A DNA stretch of 48,935 bases, from UHGV virus genome UHGV-1375816; one strand, written 5' to 3'. Under the pieces are notes generated by a model. The model was not told the origin of the DNA, did not search any database, and worked only from the letters and a program-made list of their open reading frames with translations. Below are positions 1 through 48,935 of this stretch, piece after piece. A program made the position numbers and the translations under genes. The first letter of the stretch is position 1; each line of letters starts with the position of its first letter. The stretch is from a virus.

Positions 1-147
1 CTACATTTATATTATATATTATATACTTTCTATTACTACTAATTACTATTTTATAGGGGTATAGGGGTAATAAGTAGTATAGTACTGAAAGTTAAAGAGT
101 TTTTGATACCCCGATGAAGTACCCCGAACGAGTTTCATCGGGGTATG
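1..147. repeat. 3' part of a ~300 bp imperfect direct repeat. The 5' part is 48785..48935, and the second copy is 14172..14477
   Basis: The AT-rich block 'ctacatttatattatatattatatactttctattactactaattactattttata', the GGGGTATAGGGGTAATAAG direct repeats and the hairpin all recur at 14328..14477. The window end (...tataaactatacattatgtattata) recurs at 14290..14330, contiguous with that copy. Confidence 0.85.
109..143. other. 10-bp-stem hairpin (ccccgatgaa N15 ttcatcgggg) inside the repeat, with no U-tract after it
   Basis: The inverted repeat was read directly. The copy at 14436..14471 keeps the pairing with substitutions. Confidence 0.6.
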
Positions 148-177
148 TGGCAATGACGGGTCAGTCATGGTAGAATC
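145..177 (+). promoter_or_regulatory. Candidate extended -10 promoter (TGgTAGAAT at 168..176) upstream of terS
   Basis: TG-n-TAGAAT lies 34 nt upstream of ATG 210. The -35 is weak (atGACGgg). Confidence 0.35.
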
Positions 178-2006: not shown

Positions 2007-3419
2007 ATGGCTAAGGCTGCTAAAACAAACCTTCATCTCATGCCCGCCCGGACTACCGACGGACTGGTAAACGTCGTGTCTGGTCTTGGAACGTGGAAAG
2101 CGAAACGCTCTCATAACATGTTCACATACGCCAATTTAGGCGACTGGAAATCCCTGGACAATGCCTACCAATCAAACTGGCTGGCCCGTCAGATTGTGGA
2201 AATACCCGCAGAAGACATGTGCCGCGAGTGGCGCACCATCAAGTGCAAGGAAGCCGATGACATTCGCATCGAAGAAGACCGTCTGATGATAGCTGCCAAC
2301 GTGCAGGAGGCTGTCACATGGGCGCGTCTGTATGGTGGCGGTGGTATTCTCATGCTGACCGGGCAGGACCTGTCAAAGCCGCTCGACGTGCGCCGTATTC
2401 GCAAAGGTGATTTGAAGCGTTGTATCGTGTTTGACCGTCACGACATGTCACCGCTCACCCTGAACACCTGGGACATTCTGGCACCTAACTACATGATGCC
2501 GGAGTATTACACCATTACCGGCGGCGGTCAGCAAATCCACTGGACCCATTTTGCGCGCTTCAATGGTAAGCGTTTGCCGCGTCGCCAGATGGTCCAGACT
2601 CAGGGATGGGGTGACAGTGAGTTACGCGTGTGCCTCGATGACATCATGGACATGGTTGCATCGAAGGACGGTATTGCGGAACTGATGCAGGAAGCCAACG
2701 TTGATGTGGTCAAACGTGAAGGATTATCCGATGAGTTAGCCAGCGACCAGGATGACGCAATTGTGTCGCGTTACACCCTGTTCAGTCAGATGAAGTCACT
2801 GGTGCAAATGGCTCTGCTTGACGGTGATGAGTCATACGAACGTAAGACGCTCGACCTGGGCGGTGTTGCGCCAGTGCTTGAGACGTTCATGACGTGGATT
2901 AGTGGTGCGGCCGATATTCCTGTTACGCGCCTGTTCGGTACTTCAGCCAAAGGTTTAAACGCCACGGGTGAAGGAGACATGAACAACTACAACAACTCCA
3001 TCCGCTCTAAACAGCTGACACAGGTTGACCCGGGGTTGCGCCAGCTTGATGAGGTGCTGGTACGTAGCGCACTGGGTTACTGGCCTGACGACTTTAACTA
3101 TGAGTGGCGACCACTCGCACAGCCTAATGAATTGCAGATTGCCCAAGCTGCCAAAATCCGCGCCGATAAGGATTTAGCATATCTAGCAGAGGGAATAGTA
3201 AGACCGTCACAAATCATGCGCAATCTCGAATCGTCTGAAGAATATCAGTTTGAAGATGGTGAAATAGATAAACAGGCTTCGGTGGAGTCAGATTACGTTG
3301 CGTCTCCCCCTGACGATGAACCAAAGCTCACCGAACAACAGGATGCGTTCTGGATACGCTATAACCAGTACGTGACAGATGGTCTGTCTCATGATGAGAT
3401 AATGGCAAAACTATCCTAA
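2007..3419 (+). CDS. Portal protein
   Basis: 470 aa immediately after terL. Size, position and acidic C-terminus fit portal proteins. Confidence 0.8.
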   Translation: MAKAAKTNLHLMPARTTDGLVNVVSGLGTWKAKRSHNMFTYANLGDWKSLDNAYQSNWLARQIVEIPAEDMCREWRTIKCKEADDIRIEEDRLMIAANVQEAVTWARLYGGGGILMLTGQDLSKPLDVRRIRKGDLKRCIVFDRHDMSPLTLNTWDILAPNYMMPEYYTITGGGQQIHWTHFARFNGKRLPRRQMVQTQGWGDSELRVCLDDIMDMVASKDGIAELMQEANVDVVKREGLSDELASDQDDAIVSRYTLFSQMKSLVQMALLDGDESYERKTLDLGGVAPVLETFMTWISGAADIPVTRLFGTSAKGLNATGEGDMNNYNNSIRSKQLTQVDPGLRQLDEVLVRSALGYWPDDFNYEWRPLAQPNELQIAQAAKIRADKDLAYLAEGIVRPSQIMRNLESSEEYQFEDGEIDKQASVESDYVASPPDDEPKLTEQQDAFWIRYNQYVTDGLSHDEIMAKLS

Positions 3420-13260: not shown

Positions 13261-13282
13261 AGCCCCTCACGGGGCTTTATTC
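13261..13282. terminator. Intrinsic terminator hairpin (AGCCCCtcacGGGGCT + TTTATT)
   Basis: GC-rich stem followed by a T-run, after the fibre-like gene. Confidence 0.7.
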
Positions 13283-13507
13283 ACCAATCCTCCCGGCGTA
13301 GTGACGACCGTAATACTTCATGATGACCTTGTCAGCACATAAATAACCTTCATCCTCAACCACGATACCTCTGATAATGAAGAATCTACGATAGTGTTTT
13401 GTTAGCATACTGGTGACTCTCCACCCCATTTCTCTACGATTCACCGCTGTAATGCGACTTGTGGTCACAAACAGGGCGGTTCCGGACTTATGCTTTACTG
13501 CCCACAT
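13277..13507 (-). CDS. Hypothetical protein
   Basis: ORF. It overlaps the upstream minus-strand ORF by 20 nt in another frame. Confidence 0.35.
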   Translation of the reverse strand: MWAVKHKSGTALFVTTSRITAVNRREMGWRVTSMLTKHYRRFFIIRGIVVEDEGYLCADKVIMKYYGRHYAGRIGE

Positions 13508-13940
13508 ATTTAATCACCATGTACCCTGGTTTTGCGGAAAGCGAGACCTTGTGTTCGTATATCTCCGCGATTTTATATACGTATGTCAACTGTGCGGTGC
13601 GCAACTTAATGTCTGAATATGTTGCTTCCGTTCTCCAGTCCCATGCGAATTCCTCACCGGGTTTTGCATTTTCAAAGATGTCACGAAGGATGATGTGCTC
13701 ATACGATTTTACTCCACGTGGTGCGCGGTCCCAATTTTTGGGTTTTCCTCGCGCCAGACTTCGACCATCTATTTTTCCACTTTTTGTAATTCGCATTGGT
13801 CCCCGTGATGTCTGTACGACACCTTGAGGAACGTCATCAGACGCAGAGTGTTCACGTTGGCGCGCTCGACTCTTGTCGGACTTCACTTCCTCTTCTGGGG
13901 CATAATTTATTTTTTTTAAAATATAAGATGCAAATGACAC
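13488..13940 (-). CDS. Hypothetical basic protein
   Basis: AGAGAGG RBS before GTG 13940. A palindromic promoter lies upstream. Confidence 0.45.
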   Translation of the reverse strand: MSFASYILKKINYAPEEEVKSDKSRARQREHSASDDVPQGVVQTSRGPMRITKSGKIDGRSLARGKPKNWDRAPRGVKSYEHIILRDIFENAKPGEEFAWDWRTEATYSDIKLRTAQLTYVYKIAEIYEHKVSLSAKPGYMVIKYVGSKA

Positions 13941-13973
13941 GTTGTTATTCCTCTCTTTCTAATTCGTGTACTG

Positions 13974-14002
13974 AGTGTATCAATGGTTGACGAATCCGTC
14001 AA
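13974..14002 (-). promoter_or_regulatory. Promoter (TTGACGGATTCGTCAA, 17-nt spacer, TACACT)
   Basis: Reverse complement of 13974..14002. Palindromic -35 family. Confidence 0.55.
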
Positions 14003-14026
14003 TACCACGCGGTGACGTCGAGGCTA

Positions 14027-14180
14027 ATTTCATTCCGATCAAAAAGTGAACAACTTTGTAGTACAATATAATTACAGTGTACTACCGTATAATTTCATTC
14101 CGATCAAAAAGTGAACAACTTTGTAGTACAATATAATTACAGTGTACTACCGTATAATTTCATTCCGATCAAAAAGTGAA
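14027..14180. repeat. Tandem 65-bp direct repeats (2.4 copies). Each carries the 8-bp inverted repeat GTAGTACA/TGTACTAC and a TATAAT
   Basis: Unit starts at 14027, 14092 and 14157. The third copy degenerates. Confidence 0.85.
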
Positions 14181-14477
14181 CGATTACCCGAAAACACCCC
14201 GAAATGCACGAGGCATAGGGGTGGCGAATTTACTTTCACAATCAGCAGCTTACGAGCATAACCGAAAACCCCGTACATTCTTCCCTTCTTCCTTCTTATA
14301 AACTATATAAACTATACATTATGTATTATACTACATTTATATTATATATTATATACTTTCTATTACTACTAATTACTATTTTATAAGGGTATAAGGGTAA
14401 TAAGTAGTATAGTACTGAAAGTTAAAGAGTTTTTGATACCCCGTTGAAGTACCCCGAACGAGTTTTAACGGGGTGTG
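14172..14477. repeat. Copy B of the ~300 bp repeat
   Basis: Collinear with 48785..48935 + 1..147. Substitutions include ataggggtataggggt -> ataagggtataagggt. Confidence 0.85.
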
Positions 14478-14506
14478 TGGATACTGGCGCAACGTTGTGT
14501 GATAAT
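14478..14506 (+). promoter_or_regulatory. Candidate extended -10 promoter (TGtGATAAT)
   Basis: TG at 14498..14499 and GATAAT at 14501..14506, 24 nt before ATG 14530 (GAGGA RBS). Confidence 0.4.
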
Positions 14507-14529
14507 AGCTTGACAAATGAGGACACACT

Positions 14530-15033
14530 ATGTCAGTCAACATCAAAGCGCTGCAGCAAGCCAAACAGGCAATACGTTCGAAACTGGAGCAATACGCTAA
14601 AGCCAGTCAGAAGACCGTGACTGTCGGCATCCATTCGGACGCAGGTGAACATCCTGACTCGGGAATTACTAACGCACAGCTTGGTGCATTACTGAATTAC
14701 GGTAACCCAAATAACAAGTTGTACGGTAATCCCGCACCTATCCCGCCGCGCCCCTGGCTGATACCCGGTGTACAAAGTGGTAAACAGGATATCGTGGACA
14801 CCATCGCTCACGGTGTAGCTAATGATTTGCCTCTTGACCAGGTACTCGAACAAGTGGGCGCATTTGCAGCTGGCGCGGTGCAGCAATACATGACCGATTT
14901 GCAGCAACCCCCGAACAGCGCATACACTATCGCTCAAAAGGGTTCCAGCAATCCGCTTATCAGCACCGGCGCTTTACGGGCAAGCGTTACGTACAAGGTC
15001 ACCAACGAGAAACCAGACGAGGGCATCTCATGA
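14530..15033 (+). CDS. Neck / head-tail adaptor protein (candidate)
   Basis: First gene of the tail block, ahead of the sheath gene. Confidence 0.4.
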   Translation: MSVNIKALQQAKQAIRSKLEQYAKASQKTVTVGIHSDAGEHPDSGITNAQLGALLNYGNPNNKLYGNPAPIPPRPWLIPGVQSGKQDIVDTIAHGVANDLPLDQVLEQVGAFAAGAVQQYMTDLQQPPNSAYTIAQKGSSNPLISTGALRASVTYKVTNEKPDEGIS

Positions 15034-17595: not shown

Positions 17596-18261
17596 TTAAA
17601 TCAAACCTTCTTCGGATAATTTTCTGACAATCCACATTTCACCTTCGGCATAAAACATAGGTTGTGAGAACCCGTTCTCTGTCTCACGCATTATTCCGTA
17701 CCCCTTATCGATGAACCATTGCTGAAATACACGTCCACGCTTCACGGAGCGATTGTAGACGCCCATCGAGGCTAGTTGTTTGTTTAACCATATCGCTGAT
17801 TGTCCAAACTTCTGTGCGATTTGAGTGGCGTTATAGAGACCATTGCGTTCTACAATCCGGTCGTAGACGTCTGCTTTTGGTGTCATCTCCTTGTTCTCTA
17901 GTGCGAGACGTTCTTTCTCTTTCTCGCTTTCCAGCAGCGCTTCAAGTGCTTGAATATAGTTTTGTGGTAGTGCGGGTGTATTCACCCGTGATTCCAGCTC
18001 TTGCCAGCGACGAATAATGGCGGCACGCATTTTGATACTGTAGCCCGACACCAGAATCAACGTGTTTTCTTTGTTTAGAAGAAAGACCTTACTCGGTCTG
18101 CCTCCGTTCGACGGCATGACCTTTTCCTCAAAAGTGAGGGAAAGGTCTTGTGCCATTTTTGATATGTCGCGTCGTACATTATCGTGTTCCTTCCCAGTCA
18201 ATTCTGCAATCTCACGGCTGGACATCGTTTGTACTCCGCCGACGTTCATTAAGCTGTCCAT
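17596..18261 (-). CDS. Rha-family regulator with C-terminal ANT/KilAC anti-repressor domain
   Basis: MSSREIAELTGKEHDNVRRDI is the Phage_pRha N-terminal motif. The C-terminal ~100 aa is near-identical to that of 19033..19782. Confidence 0.75.
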   Translation of the reverse strand: MDSLMNVGGVQTMSSREIAELTGKEHDNVRRDISKMAQDLSLTFEEKVMPSNGGRPSKVFLLNKENTLILVSGYSIKMRAAIIRRWQELESRVNTPALPQNYIQALEALLESEKEKERLALENKEMTPKADVYDRIVERNGLYNATQIAQKFGQSAIWLNKQLASMGVYNRSVKRGRVFQQWFIDKGYGIMRETENGFSQPMFYAEGEMWIVRKLSEEGLI

Positions 18262-18340
18262 ATTTCGTATCTCCTCTGTTGTTTGTGTGATTGTGGTTTG
18301 TTTATGGTCACGATGGTGACTGACTAGATTTTGAACTTGC
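18262..18340 (-). promoter_or_regulatory. Conserved control region of Rha paralogue 1 (shares GTTTGTTTATGGTCACGAT with the regions at 18641..18735 and 19783..19849)
   Basis: Direct sequence comparison of the three upstream regions. Confidence 0.5.
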
Positions 18341-18343
18341 GAA

Positions 18344-18640
18344 TCATTTTGTCAGCATTCTTTTGAGTCTCATTGCGCACAGGTAGATGGTGTTATCTTT
18401 ATCCAGCCGGTACTCCCATGCGTTTGGGTTGGTGGTATCATACTGAATGCACATAACCCCTTGATTCGTAACGTAACTCAAATTTGAGTTACGAACATAA
18501 TCTTCATCGTGACCACCATGTAGAGCGCAGAGCATTGAGCGAATGTCTCTGCAAACATTGTCGTGACGCTTCTCAACTAGCGTCGCAATCTCGCGGCTAG
18601 ACATGGTTAGTTCCGATTTTGTGTTTACTAAATCGTTCAT
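18344..18640 (-). CDS. Rha-family regulator (N-terminal domain only)
   Basis: MSSREIATLVEKRHDNVCRDI. Confidence 0.65.
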   Translation of the reverse strand: MNDLVNTKSELTMSSREIATLVEKRHDNVCRDIRSMLCALHGGHDEDYVRNSNLSYVTNQGVMCIQYDTTNPNAWEYRLDKDNTIYLCAMRLKRMLTK

Positions 18641-18735
18641 CTCTGTTCTCCCCTCTTGTTCGCGTGAGTATAGTTTCGATAAAAATCACGACCCGTTCAA
18701 ATCGATTTGTTTATGGTCACGATTAACGATGTGAT
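18641..18735 (-). promoter_or_regulatory. Conserved control region of Rha paralogue 2, with TCGTGAC direct repeats and a TATACT -10
   Basis: Shared with the other two upstream regions. Confidence 0.5.
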
Positions 18736-18756
18736 TGACCACAATTGGCCTCTTAA

Positions 18757-19011
18757 TTACTTTCTTTTACTCCGAATGTGAAAGTTTGCTTTGTCCATCA
18801 TTTCTTTACGCCAGCAAATCCCGGTACCCATGCACGCCGGGTCGTCACTTTCCGCGTAACCGTATTCATTTTCATGATACGTGCAAATCGTATCGGTTTG
18901 CTCATCGTAAATCTGGAATTGCTCGCTCTGAGCACTGTGGGCACCACTGCAGTAAATTGCCGCAGCCACGATGACAACCAACTGAATTTTAAATTTGTTT
19001 AACATTTTCAT
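18757..19011 (-). CDS. Small secreted Cys-containing protein with a signal peptide
   Basis: MKMLNKFKIQLVVIVAAAIYCSGAHSA is a signal peptide with an AHS-A cleavage motif. GGGGAG RBS. Four Cys in the mature part. Confidence 0.6.
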   Translation of the reverse strand: MKMLNKFKIQLVVIVAAAIYCSGAHSAQSEQFQIYDEQTDTICTYHENEYGYAESDDPACMGTGICWRKEMMDKANFHIRSKRK

Positions 19012-19032
19012 ATCTCCCCTGTTATTTTTAAC

Positions 19033-19782
19033 TCAAATCAAACCTTCTTCAGATAATTTTCTGACAATCCACATTTCACCTTCAGCATAAAACATGGGTT
19101 GTGAGAACCCATTCTCTGTCTCCCGCATTATCCCGTACCCCTTATCGATGAACCACTGTTGAAATACACGTCCGCGCTTCACTGAGCGATTGTAGACGTC
19201 CATCGAGGCTAGTTGTTTGTTTAGCCATATCGCTGATTGTCCGAACTTCTGGGCGATCTGAGTGGCGTTATATAGGCCATTGCGTTCTACAATCCGATCG
19301 TAGACGTCTACTTTTGGTGCCGCTATCGACAGTTTCTCCTGCGCAATTAGTTTCTGCTCGTACTCGGTAGCCCATGCCCTCGCGGCTTCTGCTGGATTTG
19401 TGAAGTCTGGTAGTTGTTGTTTGCTGGCATTCTCCAGTTCTTGCCAACGGTCTACTAGTCTGGCAGTAAATTCCGGTGACAATTGGGCGACCACAATGAT
19501 ACTGTCTCGCTTACCCCGTTCGCCTTCGAACATGAATACTTTTTCCGAGCGAAGGCGACCTAACGAGTCGGTTTTTTGTTCATCCTCAATTTGAGGACGG
19601 ACGATCACACCGTTGTCCGCCAGAGTTTCGATGGTACGCTTCACGTTGTCATGACGCTTCTCAACCAGCGTCGCAATCTCGAGGCTAGACATAGTTAGTT
19701 CTAATTTCATGTTTATTAGATCGTTCATCTCTGTTCTCCATTTGTTTGTGTGAGTGTAGTTTCGATGAAAATCACGACCCAT
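19033..19782 (-). CDS. Rha-family regulator with C-terminal ANT/KilAC domain (longest paralogue)
   Basis: MSSLEIATLVEKRHDNVKRTI. 19033..19340 is ~93% identical at the DNA level to 17596..17900. Confidence 0.75.
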   Translation of the reverse strand: MGRDFHRNYTHTNKWRTEMNDLINMKLELTMSSLEIATLVEKRHDNVKRTIETLADNGVIVRPQIEDEQKTDSLGRLRSEKVFMFEGERGKRDSIIVVAQLSPEFTARLVDRWQELENASKQQLPDFTNPAEAARAWATEYEQKLIAQEKLSIAAPKVDVYDRIVERNGLYNATQIAQKFGQSAIWLNKQLASMDVYNRSVKRGRVFQQWFIDKGYGIMRETENGFSQPMFYAEGEMWIVRKLSEEGLI

Positions 19783-19849
19783 TCAAATCGATTTGTTTAT
19801 GGTCACGATTAACGATAGAATTAATGGTATCTAACTGAGGGGGAATAAA
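19783..19849 (-). promoter_or_regulatory. Conserved control region of Rha paralogue 3
   Basis: Shared GTTTGTTTATGGTCACGATTAACGAT block. Confidence 0.5.
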
Positions 19850-42759: not shown

Positions 42760-42784
42760 CCACTCCGTCAACCTGTGCCATACT
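42756..42784 (+). promoter_or_regulatory. Promoter TTGACCACTCCGTCAA, 17-nt spacer, CATACT
   Basis: Palindromic family member, 30 nt upstream of ATG 42814. Confidence 0.5.
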
Positions 42785-42813
42785 GCAACAAATTACCTAA
42801 TGGAACCGAATTT

Positions 42814-43095
42814 ATGAGCAAAGATAATATTTTAGAAGTCGCATATGTAATGGCACAGCGTGATGGCTTCGGTAGTCTAACGCGTGATGGTGTCGCAGCC
42901 GAAGCCGGTGTGGCAATGGGTACCATCAATCACCATTGGAAAGTCATGTCAGCTTTGCGCGATGCCGTTATGCAACGGGCGGTGGAGGAAGAGAATCTGG
43001 AAATTATTGCACAAGGTATTGCATTGGGGGATAAAATTGCCAATTCAGCATCCAGAGATGTCAGAGTCAAAGCAGTCAATGAATATCTTCTGTAA
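42814..43095 (+). CDS. TetR-like helix-turn-helix protein (94 aa)
   Basis: ILEVAYVMAQRDGFGSLTRDGVAAEAGVAMGTINHHW matches the TetR_N HTH pattern. The track start at 42775 is upstream. Confidence 0.5.
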   Translation: MSKDNILEVAYVMAQRDGFGSLTRDGVAAEAGVAMGTINHHWKVMSALRDAVMQRAVEEENLEIIAQGIALGDKIANSASRDVRVKAVNEYLL

Positions 43096-48784: not shown

Positions 48785-48935
48785 GTCAATACCTCATTTT
48801 ACCCCGAAATACCCGAGGCATCGGGGTGGCGAATTTACTTTCACAATCAGCAGCTTACGCGCATAACCGAACACCCCGTACATTTTTCCCTTCTTCCCTC
48901 TTATAAACTATATAAACTATACATTATGTATTATA
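48785..48935. repeat. 5' part of repeat copy A (continues at 1..147)
   Basis: Collinear with 14172..14330. Confidence 0.85.

Follow-up and report, generated by a model that had tools for sequence, protein, structure and literature searches.

What does a short tandem array do in front of the neck and tail genes of a virulent Klebsiella phage, and which protein, if any, recognises it? The question is raised by a locus in the virus genome UHGV-1375816, of which a stretch of 48,935 nucleotides (nt), referred to below as the window, was analysed. The array, made of 65-bp units, had been interpreted in an earlier sequence-only reading as iterons of an origin or of a partition-like site, with tandem promoters as the alternative. 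We arrive at a different interpretation, to which we assign a probability of about 40%: each unit would be a copy or a mimic of the dgo promoter-operator of the bacterial host, and would work as a rightward promoter module gated by the host repressor DgoR. The comparison of sequences suggests that a virulent phage may be wired into one specific host sugar-acid regulator.

Structure of the tandem array

Tandem Repeats Finder reports a repeat at 14025..14181 (plus strand) with a period of 65, 2.4 copies, 100% matches and a score of 314. The 2.4-copy array that the sequence-only reading had placed at 14027..14180 is hence real and corresponds to this repeat. It consists of two complete units (14025..14089 and 14090..14154) and a 27-nt partial third, and its layout can be written as A-B-A-B-A, with A segments of 27 nt and B segments of 38 nt. 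The same reading had recognised in each unit an 8-bp inverted repeat and one perfect TATAAT, and both descriptions hold in part. The inverted repeat, GTAGTACA-N12-TGTACTAC, is present at 14058..14085 and 14123..14150; no other occurrence was found in the window with up to three mismatches (0.11 expected), and GTAGTACA occurs in the window only as the four arms of the array. It is really composed of two adjacent 11-bp palindromic boxes whose centres are 21 bp apart. Box 1, TTGTAGTACAA, is located at 14056..14066 in the first unit and at 14121..14131 in the second, and box 2, GTGTACTACCG, at 14077..14087 and 14142..14152. TATAAT is perfect, but there are two copies per unit, not one (14067..14072, 14088..14093, 14132..14137 and 14153..14158). 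All of them are on the plus strand, and they make up four of the nine plus-strand TATAAT of the window; upon shuffling, the probability of at least two per unit is about 0.005. As a TATAAT directly follows each box, the unit holds an internal 21-bp sub-repeat made of a box and a -10 element.

Two further motifs recur in the array. AGTGA-N6-TTGTA is found on the plus strand at 14045..14060 and again at 14110..14125, and bears a weak similarity to the class II CRP site of the host. In addition, each A segment includes one GATC (14037..14040, 14102..14105 and 14167..14170). This tetranucleotide is about six-fold under-represented in the window (29 occurrences in 48,935 nt vs. about 190 expected from length), and three of the 29 are in the 157-nt array.

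Similarity to the host dgo promoter-operator

The 16 bases specified by the two arms of the inverted repeat were searched for in bacterial and archaeal genomes, each species being represented by a single genome. At least 120 loci were obtained, when about 0.001 chance matches are expected per 5-Mb genome, and a match due to chance would not coincide with a known operator. Among the matches listed, most belong to Enterobacteriaceae and include E. coli, K. pneumoniae ATCC 13883, K. michiganensis, Enterobacter, Citrobacter and Salmonella; a DgoR homologue is encoded within 400 nt at 70 of the 120 loci, and the enterobacterial loci represent one orthologous site, present once per genome, at dgoR. 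These latter loci share the context ...ATTGTTCTTTTTGTGATCtaaaTTGTAGTACAAc-N8-rTTGTACTACAtt..., and in E. coli the site is in the yidX-dgoR intergenic region. It is the dgo promoter; a pair of DgoR dimers occupies two inverted repeats that are close to each other and overlap the promoter, and the dimers are released by D-galactonate (PMC11705089). The published sequence of the first inverted repeat (IR1) is CTAAATTGTAGTACAACAATAT (PMC11705089). The region also includes a class II CRP site (TGTGA...), the -10 hexamer TACATT and further overlapping RNA polymerase sites, which underlie the DgoR boxes (PMC6003448).

Box 1 of the phage is identical to IR1 of E. coli and of K. pneumoniae at 11 of 11 positions. 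TTGTAGTACAA fits the IR1 form TTGTA(G/C)TACA(A/T) with no mismatches, and in the window only the sites at 14056 and 14121 do so; no further box-like sites above chance were detected in the window. Box 2 matches the second host repeat (IR2), TTGTACTACAT, at 8 of 11 positions, with its core TGTACTAC intact, and the gap between box 1 and box 2 is of 10 bp, the same as in the host. K. pneumoniae ATCC 13883 has the same operator, about 110 nt from a DgoR that is 94% identical to that of E. coli. The element thus partly qualifies, by the sequence of box 1 and by the spacing, as a DgoR operator pair, and may behave as one. The earlier proposal of a site for a dimeric protein stands as far as dimers are concerned; instead of a single site, the unit contains two separate 11-bp palindromes, as for two dimers, matching the host DgoR operators.

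The similarity extends beyond the boxes. When the 16 anchored bases are left out, the plus strand of the unit still matches the dgo consensus of 69 species better than random phage windows do (z = 2.7, p ~0.005, ungapped), whereas the minus strand is no better than random in the same ungapped comparison. The collinear part includes GTGA-N6-TTGTA at the position of the host CRP site (TGTGA-N6-TTGTA in the host). Compared with the dgoRKADT promoter-operator of E. coli and Klebsiella, the phage unit therefore has in common a box 1 equal to IR1, a second box after a 10-bp gap, the GTGA-N6-TTGTA at the CRP position, -10-like hexamers in and after the boxes, and a GATC nearby. It differs in that box 2 is only 8/11 identical to IR2, in that the -10 hexamers are perfect TATAAT in a shifted register, and in that the GATC is located 5 nt upstream of the CRP-like half-site (AGTGA) and not inside it. 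Only about 40-49% of the non-box positions match. The phage element is, moreover, tandem and carried by a virulent phage, with no dgo gene downstream. The dgoR regulatory region of Salmonella has a single GATC, found in the CRP site; this GATC is undermethylated and plays a part in ON/OFF expression (PMC7708049).

Other searches with the boxes gave the following. Some 45 nt beyond IR2, the E. coli dgo leader contains a third box resembling those of DgoR, GGTACTACAAAGTTG. The 14-mer GTACTACAAAGTTG is found without any change both in this box and on the minus strand of the phage unit (window 14051..14064); the K. pneumoniae counterpart of the box is TAGTAGTACAAAC. A few unrelated viral contigs of IMG/VR have two perfect TTGTA(G/C)TACAA boxes 10 bp apart with no DgoR gene nearby, and TTGTAGTACAAGCATTTCAACTTGTAGTACA recurs in four of them. 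The search for canonical DgoR box pairs in other viral contigs yielded only a fragment of the E. coli host and unrelated contigs of unknown host. The motifs of TrpR, TyrR, LexA, Fur and IHF and those of clustered regularly interspaced short palindromic repeats (CRISPR) were also considered, and none fits the unit.

Distribution and copy number among related phages

The 1.6 kb around the array match 71 phage records, nearly all of them Klebsiella myophages of the genus Jedunavirus (JD001-like); the closest is RCIP0091, which is 95% identical along the full length. In size and gene order the window corresponds to a complete Jedunavirus genome, and it is one. The array is carried by 26 of the 71 GenBank records matching the region and by 6 of the 13 IMG/VR contigs having the full upstream region; about half of the close relatives lack it. 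In phages without the array (JustaPhage, KpV52, cmc20193, RCIP0047, 1611E-K2-1, BUCT_49532, Pectobacterium phage PEAT2 and others) the sequence at this position reads ...GTCAATACC-TCATTTT-ACCCCGAAAT..., and this read-through identifies 14007..14195 (plus strand) as an insertion or deletion polymorphism. These limits of the whole insertion come from the comparison with JustaPhage, RCIP0047, KpV52, PEAT2 and others.

The comparison of copy number among related phages that the sequence-only reading had recommended shows from one to at least six units, in addition to the many viable relatives with none. There is one B segment in JD001 and Kpn112, two in the window and in many other phages, three or four in some contigs, and at least six units in a 49-kb metagenome contig (12737..13158). 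HHU1 has four B segments and an irregular 32-nt partial copy; this extra copy of the box pair is inside one unit of the array (2570..2890 in HHU1). The array is seen at both ends of an 11.5-kb IMG/VR contig, where the repeat has probably misled the assembly. One group of phages has TAATTACTGTAATTTTATTTTGTACAAAAAAAATGAAC in place of the last partial unit; this sequence has only its ends in common with segment A, is devoid of GATC and contains the 12-bp palindrome TTTTGTACAAAA.

Units are identical within each phage, and the differences between phages (e.g., C to T in the spacer) are common to all the units of a given phage, which indicates recent homogenisation. The presence of the array is patchy on trees built from either flank. 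Among 17 phages, the mean pairwise identity of the unit is 98.6%, vs. 83% for the 150-nt flanks, and no variable site was found in box 1 or in TATAAT; one of the six variable sites falls in the 34 of the 65 positions taken as functional, a marginal result (P ~0.09). A metagenome scan for divergent arrays, intended for the test of box conservation, returned near-identical units only and hence added no power to it. A blastn search of PLSDB for a plasmid source of the element gave no match.

This distribution bears on the possibility that the array has no selected function. A dgo-like piece, either captured or arisen by chance, would have settled in a tolerant intergenic spot, where slippage or unequal recombination would lengthen or shorten it and homologous recombination between the conserved flanks would spread it; DgoR may bind it inconsequentially. 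The absence of the array from about half of the relatives, its patchiness on both flank trees, the free variation in unit number, the irregular 32-nt partial duplication of HHU1, the recent homogenisation within phages and the marginal substitution test are all compatible with such a neutral repeat. We nevertheless consider it unlikely. Every phage has a perfect box 1 in all of its units, although the remainder of the unit bears no close resemblance to any sampled host, and the two perfect TATAAT are in register with the boxes. Every A segment has kept its GATC in a genome purged of it about six-fold, and the unit is much more conserved than its flanks.

Unlikely readings: replication origin, partition site and RNA structure

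The same distribution argues against the reading of the array as replication origin or as centromere-like partition iterons, which we regard as very improbable. In form, the array does recall tandem arrays such as F sopC, and there is AT-rich DNA 110 nt to its right. That tract is, however, part of a 285-nt repeat that is shared with a second copy ahead of the terminase genes and with array-less phages. Many viable relatives with the same replication genes do not have the array, which ranges from one to at least six units in others; by the refuting condition set in the sequence-only reading itself, free variation of copy number among viable isolates speaks against an origin, and this part of its interpretation is not supported. 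The replication genes are at ~31-46 kb, 17-30 kb away from the array. There is no DnaA-box-like site in the array, and a nearby one, at 14476, belongs to the 285-nt repeat. The sharpest change of sign in GC skew is found at ~38-39 kb, between the divergent replication modules, with no signal at 14 kb. When 6 genomes with and 5 without the array were compared, no open reading frame (ORF) of the window of at least 40 amino acids (aa) was seen to track it. The annotations of the related records examined include no initiator and no ParA/ParB-type gene, and Pfam scans of a subset of the window ORFs identified proteins of the TetR and Rha/ANT types only. The boxes, furthermore, match a host metabolic repressor. 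Since the defining features of these classes that were looked for are absent, the array is very unlikely to be an iteron origin or a partition site; distribution, copy number, missing partner gene, missing DnaA boxes and GC skew together led us to discard the iteron reading.

A role as RNA was also considered: the units form hairpins, and could belong to a small structured RNA or to a terminator. The 8-bp arms can pair, and the single-stranded unit folds with -7.3 kcal/mol (z = -2.5). The stem is weak all the same, with a 12-nt loop and no T run after it, and no terminator was called. The search of 13941..14529 against Rfam 15 identified no family; its matches at E <= 10 are spurious microRNA models only, with 17-23 bits vs. 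the 50-101 needed (the best, 22.5 vs. 101). The arms are accounted for by the two self-palindromic protein boxes. On the basis of the sub-threshold Rfam matches and of the weak fold, we rejected this explanation as extremely improbable.

Candidate binding proteins

If the boxes are protein sites, the protein could be encoded by the phage or by the host. To look for a phage partner, the 362 window ORFs of at least 40 aa were compared by tblastn with the 6 array-plus and 5 array-minus genomes. No ORF co-occurs with the array, the only exception being a 43-aa ORF that overlaps the array itself. No GntR-like phage protein was found either, by phmmer with DgoR against the window ORFs or by Pfam scans of the DNA-binding candidates. 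A dedicated phage binder was rejected on these grounds, and the lack of both a co-occurring ORF and a GntR-like protein fits a host protein as binder.

A different binder, either a core DNA-binding protein of the phage (TetR-like, Rha/ANT or of an unknown type) or another GntR regulator of the host, appears quite unlikely to us. Palindromes of the GT-N-AC type are a general theme of the GntR family (PMC11705089), and the phage does encode TetR_N and Rha/ANT proteins. The exact pattern is nevertheless present once per enterobacterial genome, at dgoR, among the matches listed. The TetR-like protein has a better candidate operator, TTGACG-N4-CGTCAA, at about 12 early promoters; the presence of the Rha/ANT genes does not follow that of the array, and they are absent from JD001, which has the array. 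No other box-like site exceeds chance in the window. With no GntR protein, a better operator for the TetR-like protein and Rha/ANT genes that do not track with the array, host DgoR is the obvious candidate binder.

A proposed DgoR-gated promoter module or a possible DgoR sponge

According to the reading that we favour, dimers of DgoR, a GntR/FadR repressor of the host, would occupy the boxes in infected Klebsiella when D-galactonate is absent, and would block the adjoining -10 elements. In the presence of this gut sugar acid, DgoR would leave and the units would act as rightward promoters, probably weak ones, whose transcripts would traverse the 285-nt leader and enter the neck/tail operon. 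Replicating phage DNA would, as an unavoidable side effect, titrate DgoR. The accessory insertion at 14007..14195 would change its number of units by unequal recombination between the 27-bp A segments. The tandem promoters that the sequence-only reading had mentioned as its alternative are also plausible, given the TATAAT after each box and the collinearity with the dgo promoter; a sigma-70 consensus scan called no full promoter inside the units.

Several points weigh against the DgoR-gated reading. Box 2 has a G at the host-invariant first T of IR2, and CG instead of AT. Both the CRP-like half-site and the position of the host -10 hexamer (TACCGT vs. TACATT) are weaker than their host counterparts. 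In gapped local alignments the boxes prevail and the orientation is ambiguous; a minus-strand pairing of TTGTTCACTTTTTGATC with host TTGTTCTTTTTGTGATC is also permitted. The best sampled host matches the unit at only 28 of 57 non-anchor positions, a value that rules out recent capture from a host and leaves two options, namely convergence and an old capture that has diverged while keeping the boxes. The sigma-70 consensus scan found no promoter inside the units because of poor -35 matches (at best 2-3 of 6); the host dgo promoter likewise depends on CRP (PMC6003448). The authors of KpV79 and KpV52 annotated no promoter within the array. About half of the genus does without the array, so any benefit must be conditional, and it is not obvious why a virulent phage should gate its tail genes on D-galactonate. 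The conservation of the unit could be due to recent spread by recombination rather than to constraint, and some of the copy-number differences could be errors of short-read assembly.

The same operator identity would also serve a DgoR sponge, in which titration is what has been selected. Hundreds of phage genomes with 2 to 12 boxes each would derepress dgoRKADT: a tunable decoy of variable number would strip the scarce, autoregulated DgoR off its single chromosomal operator and so turn D-galactonate catabolism on. The amplification from one to at least six units would scale the capacity of the sink, and box 1 is a perfect palindrome while the CRP half-site and the host -10 position, which are the promoter-like parts, have decayed with respect to the host. 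A precedent, which also counts in favour of the DgoR-gated reading, shows that phages can gain from targeting exactly DgoR. Phage P22 specifically derepresses the Salmonella dgo operon by means of Pid, an 86-aa moron protein encoded in the late region, and extra DgoR abolishes this effect (PMC3573128). No Pid homologue was detected in 11 Jedunavirus genomes, which would make the route of the sponge independent of that of P22; a Pid-like protein was for this reason discarded as a way to the dgo operon here, and there is no DgoR-like box at the P22 pid locus. We find the sponge doubtful. Derepression would be useful only with D-galactonate present, when DgoR is already released, and the affinity reported in vitro is modest, ~0.5 uM (PMC11705089). 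A sink has no need of a strand-biased pair of perfect TATAAT in each unit. Pid itself has no known benefit, and acts in the carrier state and not in lytic growth.

Genomic surroundings of the array

Genes of the window are arranged as head and packaging genes, rightward from ~200; neck, tail and baseplate genes, rightward from 14530; and lysis genes together with two divergent replication modules at ~31-46 kb. The series of late genes is broken up by several small leftward cassettes. The region 13941..14529, which contains the array, has no convincing gene (ORFs of 41-62 aa only). As the sequence-only reading had it, the array is between divergent units, namely a leftward early unit (13940..13277) and a rightward one that begins with Neck1 (14530). 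It had also called this the only sizeable non-coding region, which is incorrect, as the other copy of the 285-nt repeat spans the ends of the record (48801..48935 plus 1..150).

To the left of the array, an early-type sigma-70 promoter is found on the minus strand at 13974..14002 (TTGACG-17-TACACT with a TG). Its -35 hexamer is part of the palindrome TTGACGAATCCGTCAA. With respect to this promoter the array is upstream, and the motif is annotated as a promoter in KpV79 and KpV52. This promoter is predicted to drive a two-gene accessory cassette on the minus strand, 13940..13277, that encodes a 150-aa protein (13488..13940) and a 43/76-aa protein (phrog_27419) and terminates at a hairpin (13261..13276). 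Neither protein has an informative Pfam or PHROG function. The cassette is swapped among relatives: JD001 and KpV79 encode proteins of 98 and 44 aa at this position, HHU1 and JustaPhage proteins of 212 ("DNA/RNA binding") and 43 aa, and BUCT_49532 a methyltransferase. The only recurring member is the 43-aa protein (phrog_27419), and the type of cassette does not follow the presence of the array.

The motif TTGACG-N4-CGTCA(A) is shared by about 12 early-type sigma-70 promoters of the window (4083, 5446, 7110, 13988, 24473, 37028, 39092, 39149, 41949, 42757, 43619 and 46086), in which the -35 hexamer is in a 14-16-bp palindrome and the -10 hexamer follows ~17 bp later. The palindrome looks like a genome-wide operator, and the conserved TetR_N protein encoded at 42775..43095 is a candidate for its binding.

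To the right of the array, copy B of the 285-nt direct repeat (14196..14480, plus strand) forms a leader or regulatory region ahead of the neck/tail operon. The other copy, with 95-96% identity, precedes the terminase genes, so the repeat is directly upstream of both late operons, that of the terminase small subunit and that of Neck1. Within its very AT-rich core there are 2.2 copies of TATAAACTA. Many metagenomic contigs of the genus break within the repeat, 105-169 nt before Neck1. From its position, the 285-nt repeat may be a late promoter or leader. No terminator-like sites were found between 14181 and 14530, and any rightward transcript from the array would cross copy B. Downstream of the array, the rightward late operon opens with the Neck1/tail-completion gene (14530..15033, plus strand), identified by phrog_222 (E = 1e-44) and by the annotations of relatives.

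Further downstream, at 17598..19816, there are duplicated leftward cassettes with repeats of 285, 97 and 89 nt (88-93% identity). They encode Rha and KilAC/ANT-type proteins (17596..18261 and 19033..19782) and a short Rha protein (18344..18640), and their genes are present in some relatives and absent from others.

Comparison with known systems and significance

The nearest concept to the array appears, by analogy, to be a host-regulator box on a phage genome. Boxes of host transcription factors are known on phages for LexA (temperate phages), Fur (the Fur box of stx1) and PhoB (cyanophages). As would be the case with the array, an operator of a host regulator is found there on phage DNA, and phage transcription follows the physiology of the host. 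Those regulators respond globally to stress or nutrients and have single sites at defined phage promoters, whereas the array would answer to a pathway-specific sugar-acid regulator, contains an operator pair in tandem, and is polymorphic in its presence within a genus.

Iteron origins and F sopC, whose 43-bp units each include an inverted repeat, are similar to the array in being non-coding head-to-tail repeats with an inverted repeat near an AT-rich stretch. The array differs from them in having no cognate initiator or partition gene, in being dispensable in relatives, in its distance from the replication genes and in its host-repressor boxes. Titration loci, such as E. coli datA for DnaA and the lacO and tetO arrays used in laboratories, also consist of clustered sites, of high affinity, whose number sets the amount of regulator sequestered; in the array, titration of DgoR is only proposed. 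We know of no natural phage-borne decoy for a metabolic repressor. P22 Pid is comparable in that a phage accessory element among late genes is aimed at the same DgoR/dgo system. It is, unlike the array, a trans-acting protein of a temperate Salmonella phage that works in the carrier state; here the element is DNA, the phage is virulent, and the effect on dgo is inferred. No literature linking DgoR or D-galactonate to Klebsiella phages was found, and the Jedunavirus papers searched do not mention the 65-bp repeat.

Host regulator boxes on phages are known mainly for temperate phages and for global regulators (LexA, Fur, PhoB). What is new here is the combination of a strictly virulent phage, a pathway-specific metabolic repressor and a tandem array of variable number that is polymorphic within the genus. 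To our knowledge, P22 is the only other phage that affects the dgo operon, and it does so by an unrelated protein; if one host switch were reached in two independent ways, this would point to the dgo system being of importance to phages. Should the array act as a sponge, DNA mimicry would reach the same end as the Pid protein of P22. The use of D-galactonate is linked to gut colonisation and virulence of enteric bacteria, and Jedunavirus is a genus used therapeutically against Klebsiella. If our reading is true, the array would provide a simple system for how a lytic phage reads or rewires host metabolism, and it would call for caution in phage therapy, as a host-interaction module to which gene annotation is blind may vary between therapeutic phages that are close relatives.

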